From Buchnera aphidicola (Neophyllaphis podocarpi) (GTDB lineage: Bacteria > Pseudomonadota > Gammaproteobacteria > Enterobacterales > Enterobacteriaceae), in assembly GCF_964059055.1 (NCBI RefSeq), contig NZ_OZ060386.1, positions 210,001 to 242,000 of the forward strand: DNA of 32,000 bases, written 5' to 3'. The translations under genes were made by a program, and so were the position numbers. The notes beneath the pieces were generated by a model. The model was not told the DNA's origin. It made no database searches and saw nothing but the letters and a program-made list of their open reading frames with translations. This document shows, one piece after another, positions 5,474 to 29,408 of the stretch (its first letter is position 1; every line of letters starts with the position of its first letter).

Positions 5474-6528
5474 TTATAAATCATTAATTAAATTAAAAAT
5501 TTTTTTAGTAGAATTTTTGAAATCAATTTTTTGTGATTTACATATCATTCTTACAATTTCTTTTCTATTCCAAATTTTTAAAATTTCTAAAATTTTCTTT
5601 ACAGATAAGTTTTTTTCGCTTATAATTTTTGCAATTCCCATTTTTTTTAAAATTAATGCATTAAAATATTGTTGTTTATCTTTATGATTATAAGGTATAA
5701 GTATTGATGGTAAATTTATACTTAATATTTCACTTACTGTTAATGCTCCTGATCTACCAATAATCATATCTGTCCATTCATAAGCTTCATCTATGTTTTT
5801 TATAAAATTAACTATTTGATGTTGAAATAATTTATTTTTTAAGTATATTTTTTTTATTCTAAAAAAATCTTTATTTCCAGTTTGATGTAATATTTTGATA
5901 TTGTTTTTAAGTTTTTTTGCTACTTCAACTATAACATTATTTAGTATAATAGATCCTTGACTTCCTCCTAATATCAATATTCGAATTTTTCCTTTTCTTT
6001 TTTGAAATCTTTTAAGAGGTTTATTTATATTTAATATTTCTTCTCTTATCGGATTTCCCACAATATAAGCATTGTTTAAAGTATTAGAAAAAGCTTGCAT
6101 ATTTATATTGGAAATTTTTGATAATATTTTGTTAGTTATTCCTGCCACTGTATTTTGTTCATGTACTAACAAGGGAATTTTACATATTTTTGCAGCTATT
6201 CCTACTGGTCCAGATACATAACCACCCATAACTAATATTACTTTAGGTGAAATTTTTTTAATTATTTTTATAGATTGATAACAAGCATATAAAATTTTTA
6301 TAGGAGATAATATCAATGTTTTGATTTTTTTTCCTACAATACCTTCAATATTTATAAAAAATATTTTTATTCCATATTTCGGAATCATTTTAGATTCTAT
6401 GCCATTTTTTGTGCCAATCCATATTACTTGCCAATTATTTTTTTTGAAATATTTTGCTAAGGTAATACCGGGAAATACATGTCCTCCAGAACCTCCTGCC
6501 GCTATTAAAATTTTTTTTTATTCATCAT
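5474..6528 (-). CDS. murG: Lipid II glycosyltransferase MurG, interrupted at codon 4-7: ATG ATG at 6528 is out of frame with the body across an A9 tract; the ORF-track ORF (5474..6388) lacks the N-terminal G-loop
   Basis: The body frame is open from 6517 and reads ILIAAGGSGGHVFPGITLAKYFKKNNWQVIWIGTKNGIESKMIPKYGIKI. This aligns to E. coli MurG [22 protein letters not shown]...LVPKHGIEI. The rest matches HEQN, GGSQG, GRSGALTVSE and HKDKQQYFNA. AGAAGG lies 8 nt upstream of ATG 6528. Confidence 0.93.
6511..6519 (-). other. A9 homopolymer (T9 on plus strand) separating the murG ATG from its reading frame; candidate slippage site
   Basis: Plus strand 6501-6530 is gctattaaaa ttttttttta ttcatcatta. 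The ATG frame gives MMNKKKF then TAA (6507..6505). The body frame has TAA at 6520..6518. Confidence 0.8.
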
Positions 6529-6550
6529 TATAGACCTTCTTAATTTTTAT

Positions 6551-7693
6551 TTATATAAAATAATTTTTTATTTTGTTTTCAAAATCTATTCTTAATAGCC
6601 AAAATATAGCAATTGATGTTATAATAAGGCTAGAACCTCCATAACTAATCAAAGGTAATGTCAATCCTTTAGTTGGTAAAATTCCAGTTACTACTCCTAT
6701 ATTAATAATAGTTTGTACATATAACCAAATGCTAATTGATATTGCAAGAAATCCTGAGAAAATTTCTTGGTTTTTTAATGCAATTTTTCCTATATACATA
6801 GCATTTATTGCTATTTTTATAATTATTGATAAAACAAATAAAGTGCCTACATAACCAAGTTCTTCAGCTATAATAGAATAAATGAAATCAGTGTTAGATT
6901 CTGGCAGATATTCTAGTTTTTGTATAGAGTTACCTAAACCTACACCAAATATATGCCCTCTACCAAAAGCTATAAAAGATTGTATAATTTGGTAACCATT
7001 TCCAAAGGGATCTTTCCATGGATCTATAAATGATATAATTCTTTTAATTCTATATGGAGTGTAAATAATTGTAGGTACTATTGTAATAATACATAATACT
7101 ATCATCAATATAAAATTTTTTAATTTAAATCCTGCAAGGAATAATAATACTAAAGTAGTAGTTAATAATATAATCACAGTTCCTAAATCTGGTTGAGATA
7201 TTATTAAATATGATAATATTATTAATATGAAAATAGGTTTATAGAAATTCCATGGTGTTTTATTTATTGTTTTAATATTTTTTTTTAAATAGCTAGATAA
7301 ATAACAAAAAAGTGAAATTTTAGATATTTCAGATGGTTGAAAATTTATAAATCCTATATTTACCCATCTAGATGAACCATTGACTGAATTTCCAAGTATT
7401 GAAACAATAAATAGTAGTATAATAGATAGAATTAAAATTTTTTTACTATGATAATCCCAAAATATCATAGGTATACGTAAAAATATTAATGATAAACTTA
7501 ATGCTATACATATATATAAAAAATGTCTTTCTAGAAAAAAAAAATAATTGTTATATAAATTTTTTCCTATATTTATAGACGTAGAAAATACCATAATTAA
7601 TCCAATTACATATAAACTAATTAGTGACCATAATAAGTCATAGTTATACATATTTTTTATTTTTTTTTTATATAATTTTGTTTTTTTTGTCAT
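6551..7693 (-). CDS. ftsW: Peptidoglycan glycosyltransferase / lipid II-handling SEDS protein FtsW
   Basis: 380 aa. Matches to E. coli FtsW: QPSEISKISLFCYL, QPDLGT, NPW-type DPWKDPFGNGYQIIQSFIAFGRG, LPESNTDFIYSIIAEELGY and PTKGLTLPLISYGGSS. The start could instead be the internal ATG at 7651, which would remove the 26-nt overlap with murD. Confidence 0.95.
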   Translation of the reverse strand: MTKKTKLYKKKIKNMYNYDLLWSLISLYVIGLIMVFSTSINIGKNLYNNYFFFLERHFLYICIALSLSLIFLRIPMIFWDYHSKKILILSIILLFIVSILGNSVNGSSRWVNIGFINFQPSEISKISLFCYLSSYLKKNIKTINKTPWNFYKPIFILIILSYLIISQPDLGTVIILLTTTLVLLFLAGFKLKNFILMIVLCIITIVPTIIYTPYRIKRIISFIDPWKDPFGNGYQIIQSFIAFGRGHIFGVGLGNSIQKLEYLPESNTDFIYSIIAEELGYVGTLFVLSIIIKIAINAMYIGKIALKNQEIFSGFLAISISIWLYVQTIINIGVVTGILPTKGLTLPLISYGGSSLIITSIAIFWLLRIDFENKIKNYFI

Positions 7694-11442: not shown

Positions 11443-12925
11443 ATAATTTTTTATTTAATATTTTTAATACGGTTTCTTCATCTGAATATTTTATTTTATT
11501 TTTTCCTATCATTTGGTAATTTTCACTTCCTTTTCCTGCTATTAAGATGATATCATTCATACTTGAATTATTTACAGCAACTTTTATAGCCTTTTTCCTA
11601 TCAGGAATTACATAAGCTTTTTTTGGATTTGTAAAACCATCCAAGATATCTTTTATTATTTTATTTGGGTTTTCTGTTCTTGGATTATCATTTGTTATAA
11701 ATACTTTATTTGATAGTTTTTCTGCTATTTTTCCCATTATAGGTCTTTTTGTTTTATCTCTATCTCCGCCGCAACCAAAAATACATGTTAGTTTTTTTTT
11801 TGAATATATTGAATTTATTATTTTTATTACTTTATTTAATGCATCTGGAGTATGAGCATAATCAATTATTATTTTAGGTTTATTTGATACATAAATTTGT
11901 TGCATTCGTCCTATTATAGGTTTTATTTTTTCTACTGTTAATATAATAGAAGATAAAGAATATCCCAAAGATAATAAAGCAGCCATAGATAACAATATAT
12001 TAACTACATTAAAATTTCCTATTAAATTAACTGATATATCCCCATTTCCCCAGCTTGAATTAAAATCAATGATACTTCTAGTATTCTCATGCTTAACTTT
12101 TTTTGCATATATCCATCTTTCTCCATATTTACATTTTAAATTTGTAGTAGCAATATAAATTTTATTTCTTGATTTTATTTTTTTAAACCAATTCATTCCT
12201 ATTTTAGTGCTTATATTTATAATTGGATTTTCAATTTTATGATCAGAAAATAGTTTCCATTTTGTTTTTTCATATTTTTTCATATTTTTATGATAGTCTA
12301 AATGATCTCTACTTATATTTGTAAATATTCCTACTTTAAATGGTATGCTAGATACTCTATATTGATCCAATGCATGTGATGATATTTCTATAGCAACTGT
12401 GTTAACTCTATTTTTTAGAAAAAAATTTAAATAAGACTGTATATCAATAGCTGAATCTGTTGTATTAATAGTTTCTATTAATTTTCCGTATAATCCATTT
12501 CCTAATGTTCCTATAACAGCACTTTTATCTCCTAACAAATTAATCCATTGTGAAATTAATTGAGTTACACTTGTTTTACCATTGGTTCCTGTTACACCTA
12601 TTATATTTAATCTATTTGATGGATTGTTATAAAAATTTCCTGCTATCTTTGATATTTTTTTTCTTATATTTTTTATATAAATAATAGGTATTTTGTTTAT
12701 ATATTTTATTTTTTTATTTTTTACTTTAGACCATGAAATTACAGCATTAGCACCTTTATTTATTGCTTCTTTTATAAATTTATTCGCATCTATTTTATTA
12801 CCTTTTATTGCTATAAATAAATCTTTTTTTTTTATATTTTTACTATTTATTTTTATATTTCTTATAAGAATTTTTCTTAATTGATAATTATTTATTCCTA
12901 ATAATTTATTTAATTTTATATTCAT
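11420..12925 (-). CDS. murE: UDP-N-acetylmuramoyl-L-alanyl-D-glutamate--2,6-diaminopimelate ligase
   Basis: 501 aa. Matches to E. coli MurE: GVTGTNGKTS, SRDHLDYH, DYAHTPDAL, GCGGDRDK.KRP and the DNPR meso-DAP specificity motif (TNDNPRTE). It overlaps the murF start by 23 nt. Confidence 0.97.
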   Translation of the reverse strand: MNIKLNKLLGINNYQLRKILIRNIKINSKNIKKKDLFIAIKGNKIDANKFIKEAINKGANAVISWSKVKNKKIKYINKIPIIYIKNIRKKISKIAGNFYNNPSNRLNIIGVTGTNGKTSVTQLISQWINLLGDKSAVIGTLGNGLYGKLIETINTTDSAIDIQSYLNFFLKNRVNTVAIEISSHALDQYRVSSIPFKVGIFTNISRDHLDYHKNMKKYEKTKWKLFSDHKIENPIINISTKIGMNWFKKIKSRNKIYIATTNLKCKYGERWIYAKKVKHENTRSIIDFNSSWGNGDISVNLIGNFNVVNILLSMAALLSLGYSLSSIILTVEKIKPIIGRMQQIYVSNKPKIIIDYAHTPDALNKVIKIINSIYSKKKLTCIFGCGGDRDKTKRPIMGKIAEKLSNKVFITNDNPRTENPNKIIKDILDGFTNPKKAYVIPDRKKAIKVAVNNSSMNDIILIAGKGSENYQMIGKNKIKYSDEETVLKILNKKLYDKNILK

Positions 12926-26888: not shown

Positions 26889-26996
26889 ATAATTATTATA
26901 ATTTTAATTACTAAAATTAAAATTTTAACAATATTTGATAAAAATATTATTTTTAATGTATGATAAGTTCATTATTTTTAAAAATAAAATTATTAT

Positions 26997-29408
26997 ATGA
27001 TAATTAAATTAATTTTTTTAGTTTTGTTTTTTTTAATTTTTTGTGTATATAGTTATGGATTTACTTATTATAAGATTATTTTTAAAGGATTAAATTTAGC
27101 TTCTAGTGAAAAAATTTATAGAATAATTACAAATAATCAAATTAATAAAATATCTAATGTTAATATTAAAAAAAGTATATTTAAGTTATTTAATACTAGT
27201 TATTTTGAAAAAATTGATGTTTTTGTTGACAAAAATAAAATTTTTTTTAATTTTAAAGAACATCCTATTATTGATGATATTCACTATATTGATAATAGAT
27301 ATGTTAATTCTAAATATATTAATAATATTGCTAATAATTTAGGTATTAATGTTAATTTTTTTTTAAATCCAAGAGTTTTATTTTTATTTAAAAAAAAATT
27401 AGAAGATTTATATAAAAGATTAGGAAGTTATAACACTGTAGTTAAAATATTTTATTCTTACAAATCTACTAATCATATAATTTTAAAAATCGTATTTTTT
27501 GAAAAGAAATTATTATCTTTTGATAAAATTTTTTTTTCTAAAAAAAATATAGTTCAATTAAATAAAAATTTTTCTTATTGTAATTTAAAAAATAGTTTAG
27601 ATTTTTTATCTATTTTTGATAGATTTTATTGTAAATTTAATCCTAGTTCATTTATAAATTATTTAAATTTATTACAGAGTTATTTTTTTAATCATGGATA
27701 TATAAATTTTAATCTAAATTATATAAAAAGTAATTATATAGAAAGTAGAAATAAAATTTCAATTTTACTTGATTTAAAACAAGGAAAAAGATTTAGAATA
27801 TCTAAATTTTTTTTACATATTTATCCTGATATTTTTTATGATTATATATCAAATATTATTTTGATTAATTCTGGTGAAGTATTCAATTATAAAAAAATTC
27901 TTTGCATTAATAAAAAAATTGCAGAATTTTTAAAAAATAATGGTTATATAAACTATTCCTTAGATTTATATCCTATAATTAATTATAAAGATAAAACAGT
28001 TGAATTACATTTTAATATAATTACAAATAATCGTTATCTAGTAAATAACATTTATTATGTTAATAATAATTATATTAAAAATCAAACTTTAAATTTGATT
28101 CTTAGTCAAAAACAGAAAAAATGGTATAGAGAAAACTTAATTATTTCAGATAAAAATCATCTTCTTAGTTCAGAATATTTTGATAATTTAGATATTAAAA
28201 TAAAAAAATCTCCTAATTCATTAAATAAAATCGACTTATTTTTTTATTTTAAAGAAAAAAACAATAATTTATTAAATTTTGGAGTTAGTTATGGTAGCTC
28301 TAGTAATGTTAGTTTGAATTTAAATTTAATCAAAAAAAAAATATTTAAAACAGAGCATATTTTAAATATAAACAATATTAAAAATATTAACGAATCTAAT
28401 GGTGAAATATCTATTTTTAATCCTTATTTATTCAAATATTTAAAAAGCATAAAAAGTATTTTTTTTTACAAACATAAGAATAATGATCCATTAAAATTAC
28501 CTGATTATTTTAATAATACTTATGGATCAAATTTCATTTTTGAAATTTTTAATAAGAAAAAACATTCATTTTTTTTAAATTTAGAATATTTGCATGATTT
28601 TAATTCTAAAAATTTTTCTCAATTTTTTATATGGAATGATTTTAATTTATATAATAATTTTATAAATACTACTAAATATCATAATTATTCTTTTGATAGT
28701 TTTTTTATAAAATTTTTATGGAATTTTAATAATTTTGATAATTTGATATTTCCTAAGATAGGTAGTAGTATCTTTTTTAAAAGTAAATTTGTTATTCCTT
28801 TATATAATACATGTTACTTTAAATCTGTTTTAGAAATTAAAAACTATATTCCTTTTAATATAAATAAAAATTTTATATTATTTAATAACATAAAATTAGG
28901 ATTTGGTAATTCTTTATATAACAGTCACTATCCATTTAATGAAAGTTTTTATTTAAAAACCTCTAATTCTGTAAGAAATTTAAATTATAACAGTATCTTT
29001 TATAAATTACATTCTACACATGATTACTATTTAAAATATTCTGAATATAACAATAATTTTTTAAATAAATTTAATAATATAACCGGAGGTAATACTTTTT
29101 TTTTAACAAATTCTGAAATGATATTTCCTGTACCTTTTTTAAATAATTCTTATATTGATAATTTAAGAATGTCTATTTTTTTAGATTTAGGTAATATCTG
29201 GAATGTTAATTTATTAAATACATTGAAATATTTTAGTAAAAGTATTACTGCTAATAAATATCAAAATATATATAATTTACATGTTACAACTGGAATATCT
29301 GTAAAATTTTTATCTCCAATAGGTATTATGACATTTTCATTCGGATATCCTTTGTATAAACAAACTGGTGATTCTATTGAATTTTTTAAATTAAATTTAG
29401 AAAAATAA
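26997..29408 (+). CDS. bamA: Outer membrane protein assembly factor BamA (Omp85 family), highly diverged
   Basis: 803 aa against 810 in E. coli, with a signal peptide. Position after uppS is conserved. Recognisable islands are KEHPII (KERPTI), FGVSYGSS (FGIGYGTESG), PFNESFY....S.VR, TGGN, MSIFLDLGNIWN (TSFFWDMGTVWD) and the C-terminal GISVKFLSPIGIMTFSFGYPL ([21 protein letters not shown]). Elsewhere similarity is swamped by N/K/I/F/Y bias. Confidence 0.9.
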   Translation: MIIKLIFLVLFFLIFCVYSYGFTYYKIIFKGLNLASSEKIYRIITNNQINKISNVNIKKSIFKLFNTSYFEKIDVFVDKNKIFFNFKEHPIIDDIHYIDNRYVNSKYINNIANNLGINVNFFLNPRVLFLFKKKLEDLYKRLGSYNTVVKIFYSYKSTNHIILKIVFFEKKLLSFDKIFFSKKNIVQLNKNFSYCNLKNSLDFLSIFDRFYCKFNPSSFINYLNLLQSYFFNHGYINFNLNYIKSNYIESRNKISILLDLKQGKRFRISKFFLHIYPDIFYDYISNIILINSGEVFNYKKILCINKKIAEFLKNNGYINYSLDLYPIINYKDKTVELHFNIITNNRYLVNNIYYVNNNYIKNQTLNLILSQKQKKWYRENLIISDKNHLLSSEYFDNLDIKIKKSPNSLNKIDLFFYFKEKNNNLLNFGVSYGSSSNVSLNLNLIKKKIFKTEHILNINNIKNINESNGEISIFNPYLFKYLKSIKSIFFYKHKNNDPLKLPDYFNNTYGSNFIFEIFNKKKHSFFLNLEYLHDFNSKNFSQFFIWNDFNLYNNFINTTKYHNYSFDSFFIKFLWNFNNFDNLIFPKIGSSIFFKSKFVIPLYNTCYFKSVLEIKNYIPFNINKNFILFNNIKLGFGNSLYNSHYPFNESFYLKTSNSVRNLNYNSIFYKLHSTHDYYLKYSEYNNNFLNKFNNITGGNTFFLTNSEMIFPVPFLNNSYIDNLRMSIFLDLGNIWNVNLLNTLKYFSKSITANKYQNIYNLHVTTGISVKFLSPIGIMTFSFGYPLYKQTGDSIEFFKLNLEK

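Follow-up and report, generated by a model that had tools for sequence, protein, structure and literature searches.

How is MurG made in a Buchnera strain whose murG gene has its start codon in the wrong reading frame? We examined this question in a 32-kb stretch of the Buchnera aphidicola (Neophyllaphis) genome (hereafter, the window; G+C = 22.4%), in which murG is carried on the minus strand. At the start of the gene this strand reads AAGAAGG tctata ATG ATG AAT AAAAAAAAA TTT TAA, with a Shine-Dalgarno (SD)-like motif and a tandem ATG leading into a run of nine A residues (A9). The MurG frame, in contrast, opens just past a TAA (6520-6518) and reads AAA AAA ATT(6511) TTA ATA GCG GCA GGA GGT TCT GGA GGA CAT (KK-ILIAAGGSGGHVFPG), with no ATG, GTG or TTG until ATG 6388, 41 codons past ATT 6511. 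One A added at the A9 tract joins ATG 6525 to the MurG frame and gives a protein of 350 aa beginning MNKKKILIAAGGSGGH. A first-pass annotation, made from the letters of the window, had described the MurG frame as one A short at this tract, with the ribosome-loading signal and the ATG out of frame with MurG; its reading of the sequence was correct in every coordinate, and both statements hold. Our analysis of the sequence indicates that murG is most likely a functional gene that long ago lost one base from a lysine-coding poly(A) run at codons 3-5, and we think it probable that RNA polymerase slippage is the main route by which its frame is restored.

The product with one added A (repaired MurG) has the properties expected of the enzyme. 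It matched PF03033 (2.8e-38, 131.6 bits; cut-off, 26.2) and PF04101 (7.9e-32, 111 bits; cut-off, 22), and E. coli MurG (1F0K) aligned to it end to end (E = 3.1e-96, residues 4-347), with the segment K4-K5-I-L-I-A-A-G-G-S-G-G-H aligning on the E. coli protein from K7. The catalytic motifs were all kept, as judged by the Pfam match and the 1F0K alignment. The nearest proteins were Buchnera aphidicola MurG, and the MNKKKILIAAGGSGGH N-terminus is colinear with other Buchnera MurG starts such as MNSKKIIIIAGGSGGH and MHSKKIIIIAGGSGGH (~55% identity). The proposal that A10 would restore a colinear N-terminus is thus borne out against both Buchnera MurG and E. coli 1F0K. The first glycine-rich loop (G-loop 1) is included in the product whether the frame is reached by slippage, by a -1 frameshift or by initiation at ATT, and it is lost from the ORF (open reading frame) that begins at ATG 6388, as had also been pointed out. 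The first-pass annotation called this loop nucleotide-binding, which is probably not correct, since we take the diphosphate of lipid I, and not the nucleotide donor, to be what G-loop 1 of the MurG N-domain binds.

In two distant Buchnera the murG gene is in frame and has a shorter A run, with starts that read ATG CAT TCA AAA AAA ATT and ATG AAT TCT AAA AGA ATA (L010 and L011, respectively). Thus, in the Neophyllaphis lineage the N-terminal lysine-coding run grew longer and then lost one base. A scan of genome contigs with repaired MurG returned only distant relatives at 29-35% identity, with close Buchnera not among the matches, and a scan of metagenome contigs for a murG locus with an A run of variable length gave 0 matches. 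Separately, MurG of Buchnera aphidicola str. G002 (Myzus persicae; 346 aa) is annotated from an internal methionine (MAGGSGGH...), and other Buchnera MurG proteins start ~8 residues before this point and continue through a Lys-Lys run; the G002 start may have been mis-called, or it may mark a further poly(A) frameshift at the N-terminus.

The break itself was assessed over 120 bases around the tract by comparing the window with CP135042 (L006), CP135039 (L007) and the Logan re-assemblies of SRR29340286 and SRR29340287 (L008 and L009). The A9 run followed by TTTT was identical in all five sequences, and neither a genomic A10 nor an A7, either of which had been named as evidence against a frameshift, was seen in the related genomes or the independent re-assemblies. 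CP135042 is 99.5% identical to the window, and CP135039 is 95.8% identical over 16.5 kb. Near the tract, CP135039 differs from the window by AAGAAGG to AGGAAGC, ATGATG to ATAATG, and GCGGCAGGA to ACAGCAGGG, so its sequence is independent of the window's. Since the first ATG is ATA in CP135039, it is the second one, at 6525, that is conserved as the start, and the MNKKK of the deposited protein CAL4320991.1 begins there too; the first-pass annotation was therefore right about an out-of-frame ATG served by an SD-like motif, but its choice of ATG 6528 does not stand. The SD-like motif, the 0-frame ATG, and the ATT and ATA codons are conserved in both lineages. Illumina indel error is low at nine-base runs. 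CP135042 and CP135039 were assembled with MEGAHIT from NovaSeq 2x150 reads (PMC11193766), and from the agreement among the sequences we consider an assembly error behind the murG A9 break very unlikely.

Selection on the frame was measured between the window and CP135039. The ratio of nonsynonymous to synonymous substitution rates (dN/dS) was 0.167 for murG (dS = 0.158), and 22 of the 51 substitutions were nonsynonymous, compared with ~80% expected under neutrality (binomial p = 7e-9). Neighboring genes of the same division and cell wall (dcw) cluster had dN/dS values from 0.03 (ftsL) to 0.29 (murE), with ftsQ, for which few sites were available, lying above them at 0.57. None of the ten indel blocks found in the 16.5-kb strain comparison falls in murG. 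No new stop in murG was seen between the lineages, while ~6% of random substitutions would make one and after 51 substitutions only ~4% of neutral histories would still be free of stops. Because both lineages carry the frameshift, it is older than their split. Judged by these substitutions, murG is under ordinary purifying selection and is not decaying, which argues that a protein including the MurG frame is made; from this constraint we infer that full-length MurG is produced. The other outcome that had been proposed as a refutation, uninterrupted relatives together with murG decay in this strain, was not what we found, as the related strains are interrupted alike and show a dN/dS of 0.17 with no stops or indels. 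Taken together, these results show a real break that diverged lineages have in common, an ORF held by purifying selection, and a repaired N-terminus colinear with those of its relatives. The locus supports the view that lipid II and peptidoglycan synthesis are retained in Neophyllaphis Buchnera.

If RNA polymerase slippage restores the frame, ribosomes would load at the SD-like AAGAAGG and initiate at ATG 6525 (Table 1), and an unedited A9 mRNA would give MNKKKF* only. RNA polymerase would slip backwards on the T9 template, which matches the RNA:DNA hybrid in length, and add one extra A in some transcripts; the resulting A10 mRNA, with the same initiation, would encode full-length MurG. A -1 slip of tRNA-Lys on A_AAA_AAA would yield the identical protein and may contribute. 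Several precedents point to the polymerase. In Buchnera cell-wall genes with a frameshift, 12-50% of the transcripts are corrected where the poly(A) run is long (Tamas 2008, summarized in PMC5009743 and PMC3017870). Of 157 insertions arising during Buchnera transcription, 151 fell within homopolymers, which consisted of A or T in every case, and the insertions were mostly of a single base, at a rate that rises exponentially with run length (PMC5574713). Nine bases is the RNA:DNA hybrid's length and typical of slippage-prone runs in bacteria (PMC1088944). The event needed at murG, one added A, is the commonest slippage event, and ftsQ in the window, which is broken in the same way as murG and corrected likewise in the deposited annotation, was counted in favor of slippage as well. 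On these grounds we infer that correction occurs at transcription and that a fraction of the transcripts is corrected.

Table 1. Positions of the features discussed at the murG locus (numbering of the window).
Feature	Position	Strand	Remarks
SD-like AAGAAGG	6535..6541	-	9 nt upstream of ATG 6525, 6 nt upstream of ATG 6528
Tandem ATG ATG	6523..6528	-	6528-6526 and 6525-6523; 0 frame, out of frame with MurG
0-frame mini-ORF MMNKKKF* (MNKKKF* from ATG 6525)	6505..6528	-	Stop TAA 6507-6505; product expected without slippage
A9 tract, sense strand (T9 on plus)	6511..6519	-	Frame-break site, putative slippage site
Heptamer A_AAA_AAA, 0 frame of ATG 6525	6517-6511	-	Inside A9 tract
MurG frame	5474..6511	-	ATT 6511 (nominal start of the automatic annotation; Ile in the slippage product) to TAA 5476-5474; 345 codons; GT28 N and C domains
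G-loop 1 coding sequence, GGSGGH (E. coli G14-H19)	6479..6496	-	From translation and alignment to 1F0K
First canonical start in MurG frame, ATG	6386..6388	-	304-aa product without G-loop 1 (ORF 5474..6388)

Several points weigh against this explanation. For this organism, the corrected fraction at A9 is presumed from the published cases. Most genes in the window lack an SD motif (28 starts inspected), so the SD argument against initiation at ATT is weak. A -1 ribosomal slip yields the same protein and is inseparable by sequence from slippage of the polymerase. Nor does the constancy of the tract count for anything statistically, as 13 of the 18 tracts of at least 9 bases kept their length among the three strains and, at 4.2% divergence, any nine bases are usually unchanged anyway. 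If slippage of either kind occurs, a tract interrupted as AAAAAGAAA should abolish it; how such correction is divided between RNA polymerase and the ribosome is a question for the whole class of such genes, and the murG locus opens no new one.

The frame could instead be restored during translation, with ribosomes from ATG 6525 slipping -1 on A_AAA_AAA (6517-6511) and going on through ATT TTA ATA to the same MNKKKILIAAGG product, a route we regard as unlikely to be the principal one. The 0-frame heptamer is present and conserved, AAA-AAA promotes -1 frameshifting in E. coli (PMC1851650), iterated AAA codons make ribosomes lose frame (PMC4363877), and the review by Atkins makes the case that corrective frameshifting lets endosymbionts tolerate indels (PMC5009743). 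However, we found no downstream stimulatory structure: the minimum free energy of 6545-6440 was -11.7 kcal/mol compared with a shuffle mean of -14.7 (z = +1.03), and 173 of 200 shuffles of this segment folded at least as well. The only SD-like motif is the one that would serve initiation, and it lies 17 nt upstream of the heptamer. In dnaX, the internal SD stimulator lies ~10 nt upstream of the heptamer. Moreover, in reconstituted E. coli translation, Koutmou et al. observed little sliding at A9 or A10 and robust sliding only from A11 (PMC4363877), and the mechanism documented experimentally in Buchnera is transcriptional (PMC5009743).

A second possibility is that no recoding takes place and MurG is initiated at ATT 6511, as in the RefSeq models of the Prokaryotic Genome Annotation Pipeline (PGAP; 345 aa, MLIAAGG...), or at ATA 6505, perhaps by ribosomes re-initiating close to the mini-ORF stop at 6507-6505, where they would have terminated. 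PGAP calls ATT in three genomes (the window, CP135042 and CP135039), both codons are conserved among the strains, and the mini-ORF stop overlaps ATA (TAATA), 4 nt past ATT. Such a start would remove only the non-conserved MNKKK and keep the beta1 strand and G-loop 1, such that the enzyme should, from its sequence, be active. The scarcity of SD motifs in this genome also suits this possibility, as does mraY, in the same cluster, which likewise has no canonical start past its TGA. On the other hand, the 25 nt upstream of ATT 6511 (ggtctataatgatgaataaaaaaaa) contain no ribosome-binding site at initiation distance, with the caveat that most genes here have none, and the only SD-like motif lies 23 nt upstream of ATT at a spacing that is right for ATG 6525. 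This motif is among the strongest at the 28 gene starts inspected. Initiation at ATT or ATA is very inefficient in E. coli. The ancestral N-terminus, as represented in other Buchnera, runs through the lysine codons, and reading the ATT as the Ile codon of the slippage product accounts for it just as well. We therefore judge initiation at ATT or ATA to be decidedly unlikely.

The remaining explanations draw on other lesions in the dcw cluster, which on the minus strand of the window comprises ftsA, ftsQ, ddl, murC, murG, ftsW, murD, mraY, murF, murE, ftsI, ftsL and rsmH. The first-pass annotation held that every other lipid II gene in the window is intact, which is not quite the case, as mraY has an in-frame TGA at codon 4. 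The 5' end of mraY (10090-10073, minus strand) reads ATG TTA ATG TGA ATA ATA GAA (M L M * I I E), with the TGA (10081-10079) at Trp4 of an MLxW...E motif whose M1, L2, W4 and E7 are invariant in seven MraY sequences. The TGA is conserved in all three strains (mraY 5' end at about 6422-6440 in L006 and about 6425-6443 in L007), an SD-like motif precedes the ATG, PGAP places the start at the ATA just past the TGA, and the gene is under purifying selection (dN/dS 0.18). A change of the genetic code from UGA to Trp was considered and rejected. TGA still serves as the stop codon of ddl and mraY, and in the window an internal TGA occurs in no gene but mraY, which makes leaky read-through of UGA by tRNA-Trp, or else re-initiation of a non-canonical kind, a likelier explanation than a code change.

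The 5' end of ftsQ (3078-3040, minus strand) reads ATG ATA ATT A9 T7, with the A9 at 3069-3061, and encodes MIIKKKFF*, such that one extra A is needed. The gene is also out of frame in CP135042 (A10T9, needing +1 nt) and is in frame in CP135039 (A9-CA-T9), so the ftsQ break is younger than that of murG. The ENA protein CAL4320934.1 (241 aa, MIIKKKIFLISIL...), labeled Buchnera aphidicola (Neophyllaphis podocarpi), is what the window's ftsQ encodes once its A9 gains one A. In murE, the N-terminal tract (12824-12833, minus strand) is A10 in the window and CP135039 and A9 in CP135042 (L006 about 3680), where PGAP gives a MurE of 464 aa instead of 501 aa; the CP135042 tract reflects a frameshift of very recent origin, or else polymorphism of the tract length or an assembly error.

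It is conceivable, though we hold it to be very doubtful, that these early dcw lesions were selected for very low or tunable output of peptidoglycan and division genes through polymerase slippage and stop leakiness. The lesions concerned would be the murG and ftsQ A9 breaks (codons 3-6), the murE tract polymorphism and the mraY UGA at Trp4, and expression attenuators just past the start codons would then replace lost transcriptional regulation. That murG is a non-functional early pseudogene in a lineage losing peptidoglycan synthesis is highly improbable: gene erosion in endosymbionts usually starts with poly(A) indels (PMC3017870) and several dcw genes of the clade carry early lesions (ftsQ, murE in CP135042 and the mraY TGA at codon 4), but the frameshift predates the lineage split and the frame has nevertheless kept its low dN/dS, with no stop or further indel, its catalytic motifs and a constraint similar to that on the rest of the mur/fts cluster. 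Equally improbable is a homopolymer miscall, or a subpopulation of A10 copies among the polyploid Buchnera genomes that supplies MurG; homopolymers are error-prone and mutable, and strains 99.5% identical differ at the murE (A10 vs A9) and ftsQ (A9T7 vs A10T9) tracts, but three genomes that two laboratories produced, two of them Illumina data (PMC11193766), agree on the murG A9, as do two independent re-assemblies, and the depositors' annotation kept A9 in the DNA and corrected the protein only.

How unusual the murG tract is within the window was examined by counting. A9 matches numbered 37, compared with 29 +/- 9 in dinucleotide shuffles, which places A9 abundance at chance level. There were 29 tracts of at least 9 bases in the 32 kb, or about one per gene, and at only two of them, murG and ftsQ, does a long open frame begin inside the tract; the other 27 lie away from a frame break, and nearly all are read in frame within long open frames. 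The frame break, and not the A9 tract itself, is the non-trivial part. Conservation of the A9 length was considered as a sign of selection on the tract and rejected, most long tracts being unchanged among the three strains. The A/T runs of at least 9 bases are mostly coding-strand poly(A) (~24 of 29), and the five sense-strand poly(T) runs comprise one in ftsW (7535-7544) and four in the 26988-29408 frame.

The public record already holds several versions of this protein. The 90% MurG cluster has six entries, namely three PGAP-style 345-aa ATT models (MLIAAGG...) from CP135042 (Neophyllaphis varicolor), CP135039 (N. podocarpi) and the window's own contig, two Logan gene calls that start further downstream (304 aa from ATG 6388 and 328 aa from a TTG), and CAL4320991.1. 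The last of these is 350 aa long, begins MNKKKILIAAGG, and shares the window's V at the single site that is L in CP135042. It can be obtained from the A9 DNA only by adding one A at the tract and reading from the second ATG, and it appears to be a conceptual, slippage-corrected translation of the window's contig. The depositors' policy was to annotate genes broken by an A/T-homopolymer frameshift as functional, after Tamas et al. 2008, weighing conservation in related strains (bioRxiv 10.1101/2022.08.28.505559). Given this entry and the stated policy, the murG frameshift has already been recognized in the public record; it is of an already known kind, a textbook member of its class, from the bacterium and the functional category in which such genes were first demonstrated, and is already annotated as slippage-corrected. 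A literature search combining murG, Buchnera and frameshift found nothing specific to murG in Neophyllaphis Buchnera. The main value of the locus lies in annotation, in that the automatic models (ATT, 345 aa; ATG 6388, 304 aa; TTG, 328 aa) differ from each other and are probably wrong, in contrast with the curated record, which is the 350-aa slippage product. The murG gene also adds one conserved example of the rule that, in AT-rich endosymbionts, a one-base poly(A) indel alone does not equal loss of function.

The host labels of these genomes conflict. The window's genome is labeled Neophyllaphis podocarpi (ENA) and is 99.5% identical to CP135042, labeled N. varicolor, and 95.8% identical to CP135039, labeled N. 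podocarpi, which points to host misidentification or a cryptic species in one of the data sets.

Among known systems, the ATT-initiated infC and pcnB genes of E. coli resemble murG in that ATT opens the longest MurG frame that is free of stops and retains the G-loop. They differ in that murG has no SD at initiation distance from its ATT and has a well-placed SD and ATG in the other frame. With E. coli dnaX (A_AAA_AAG), murG shares a tandem-lysine slippery heptamer read by a single tRNA-Lys(UUU), at which a -1 shift gives the required frame. It lacks a detected downstream hairpin and, apparently, a well-spaced internal SD, however, and its A-site codon is AAA instead of AAG. The placing of murG among dnaX-type programmed -1 sites was considered and is unsupported, the heptamer being present but no stimulatory structure.

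Closer to the transcriptional slippage that we favor are dnaX of Thermus thermophilus and insertion sequence (IS) transposases (Baranov et al. 2005), in which a sense A9 run gives mixed mRNA that is translated in the standard way into an alternative-frame product (PMC1088944). Those cases are programmed and yield two useful products in a set ratio, whereas at murG only the shifted product is useful and the arrangement looks like tolerated damage. The class that murG resembles most fully is that described in Buchnera and Blochmannia by Tamas 2008 (PNAS) and Wernegreen 2010 (MBE). It differs from the members of this class in that its tract lies at codons 3-5, just past the start, so that the unslipped product would have only 6-7 residues. 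The likeness extends to a single-base indel in a sense A run of at least 9 in an otherwise intact ORF, to a frameshift kept between related lineages under ordinary purifying selection (PMC3017870), and to its being a Buchnera cell-wall gene, the same functional class as the published cases covered in PMC5009743. Membership would also imply an mRNA pool of mixed tract length, part of it in frame, over homogeneous DNA, together with full-length protein. At the level of DNA, murG shows three features of the Tamas class, in that its indel lies in an A run, it is colinear with its relatives on both sides of the tract, and it is conserved without degradation.

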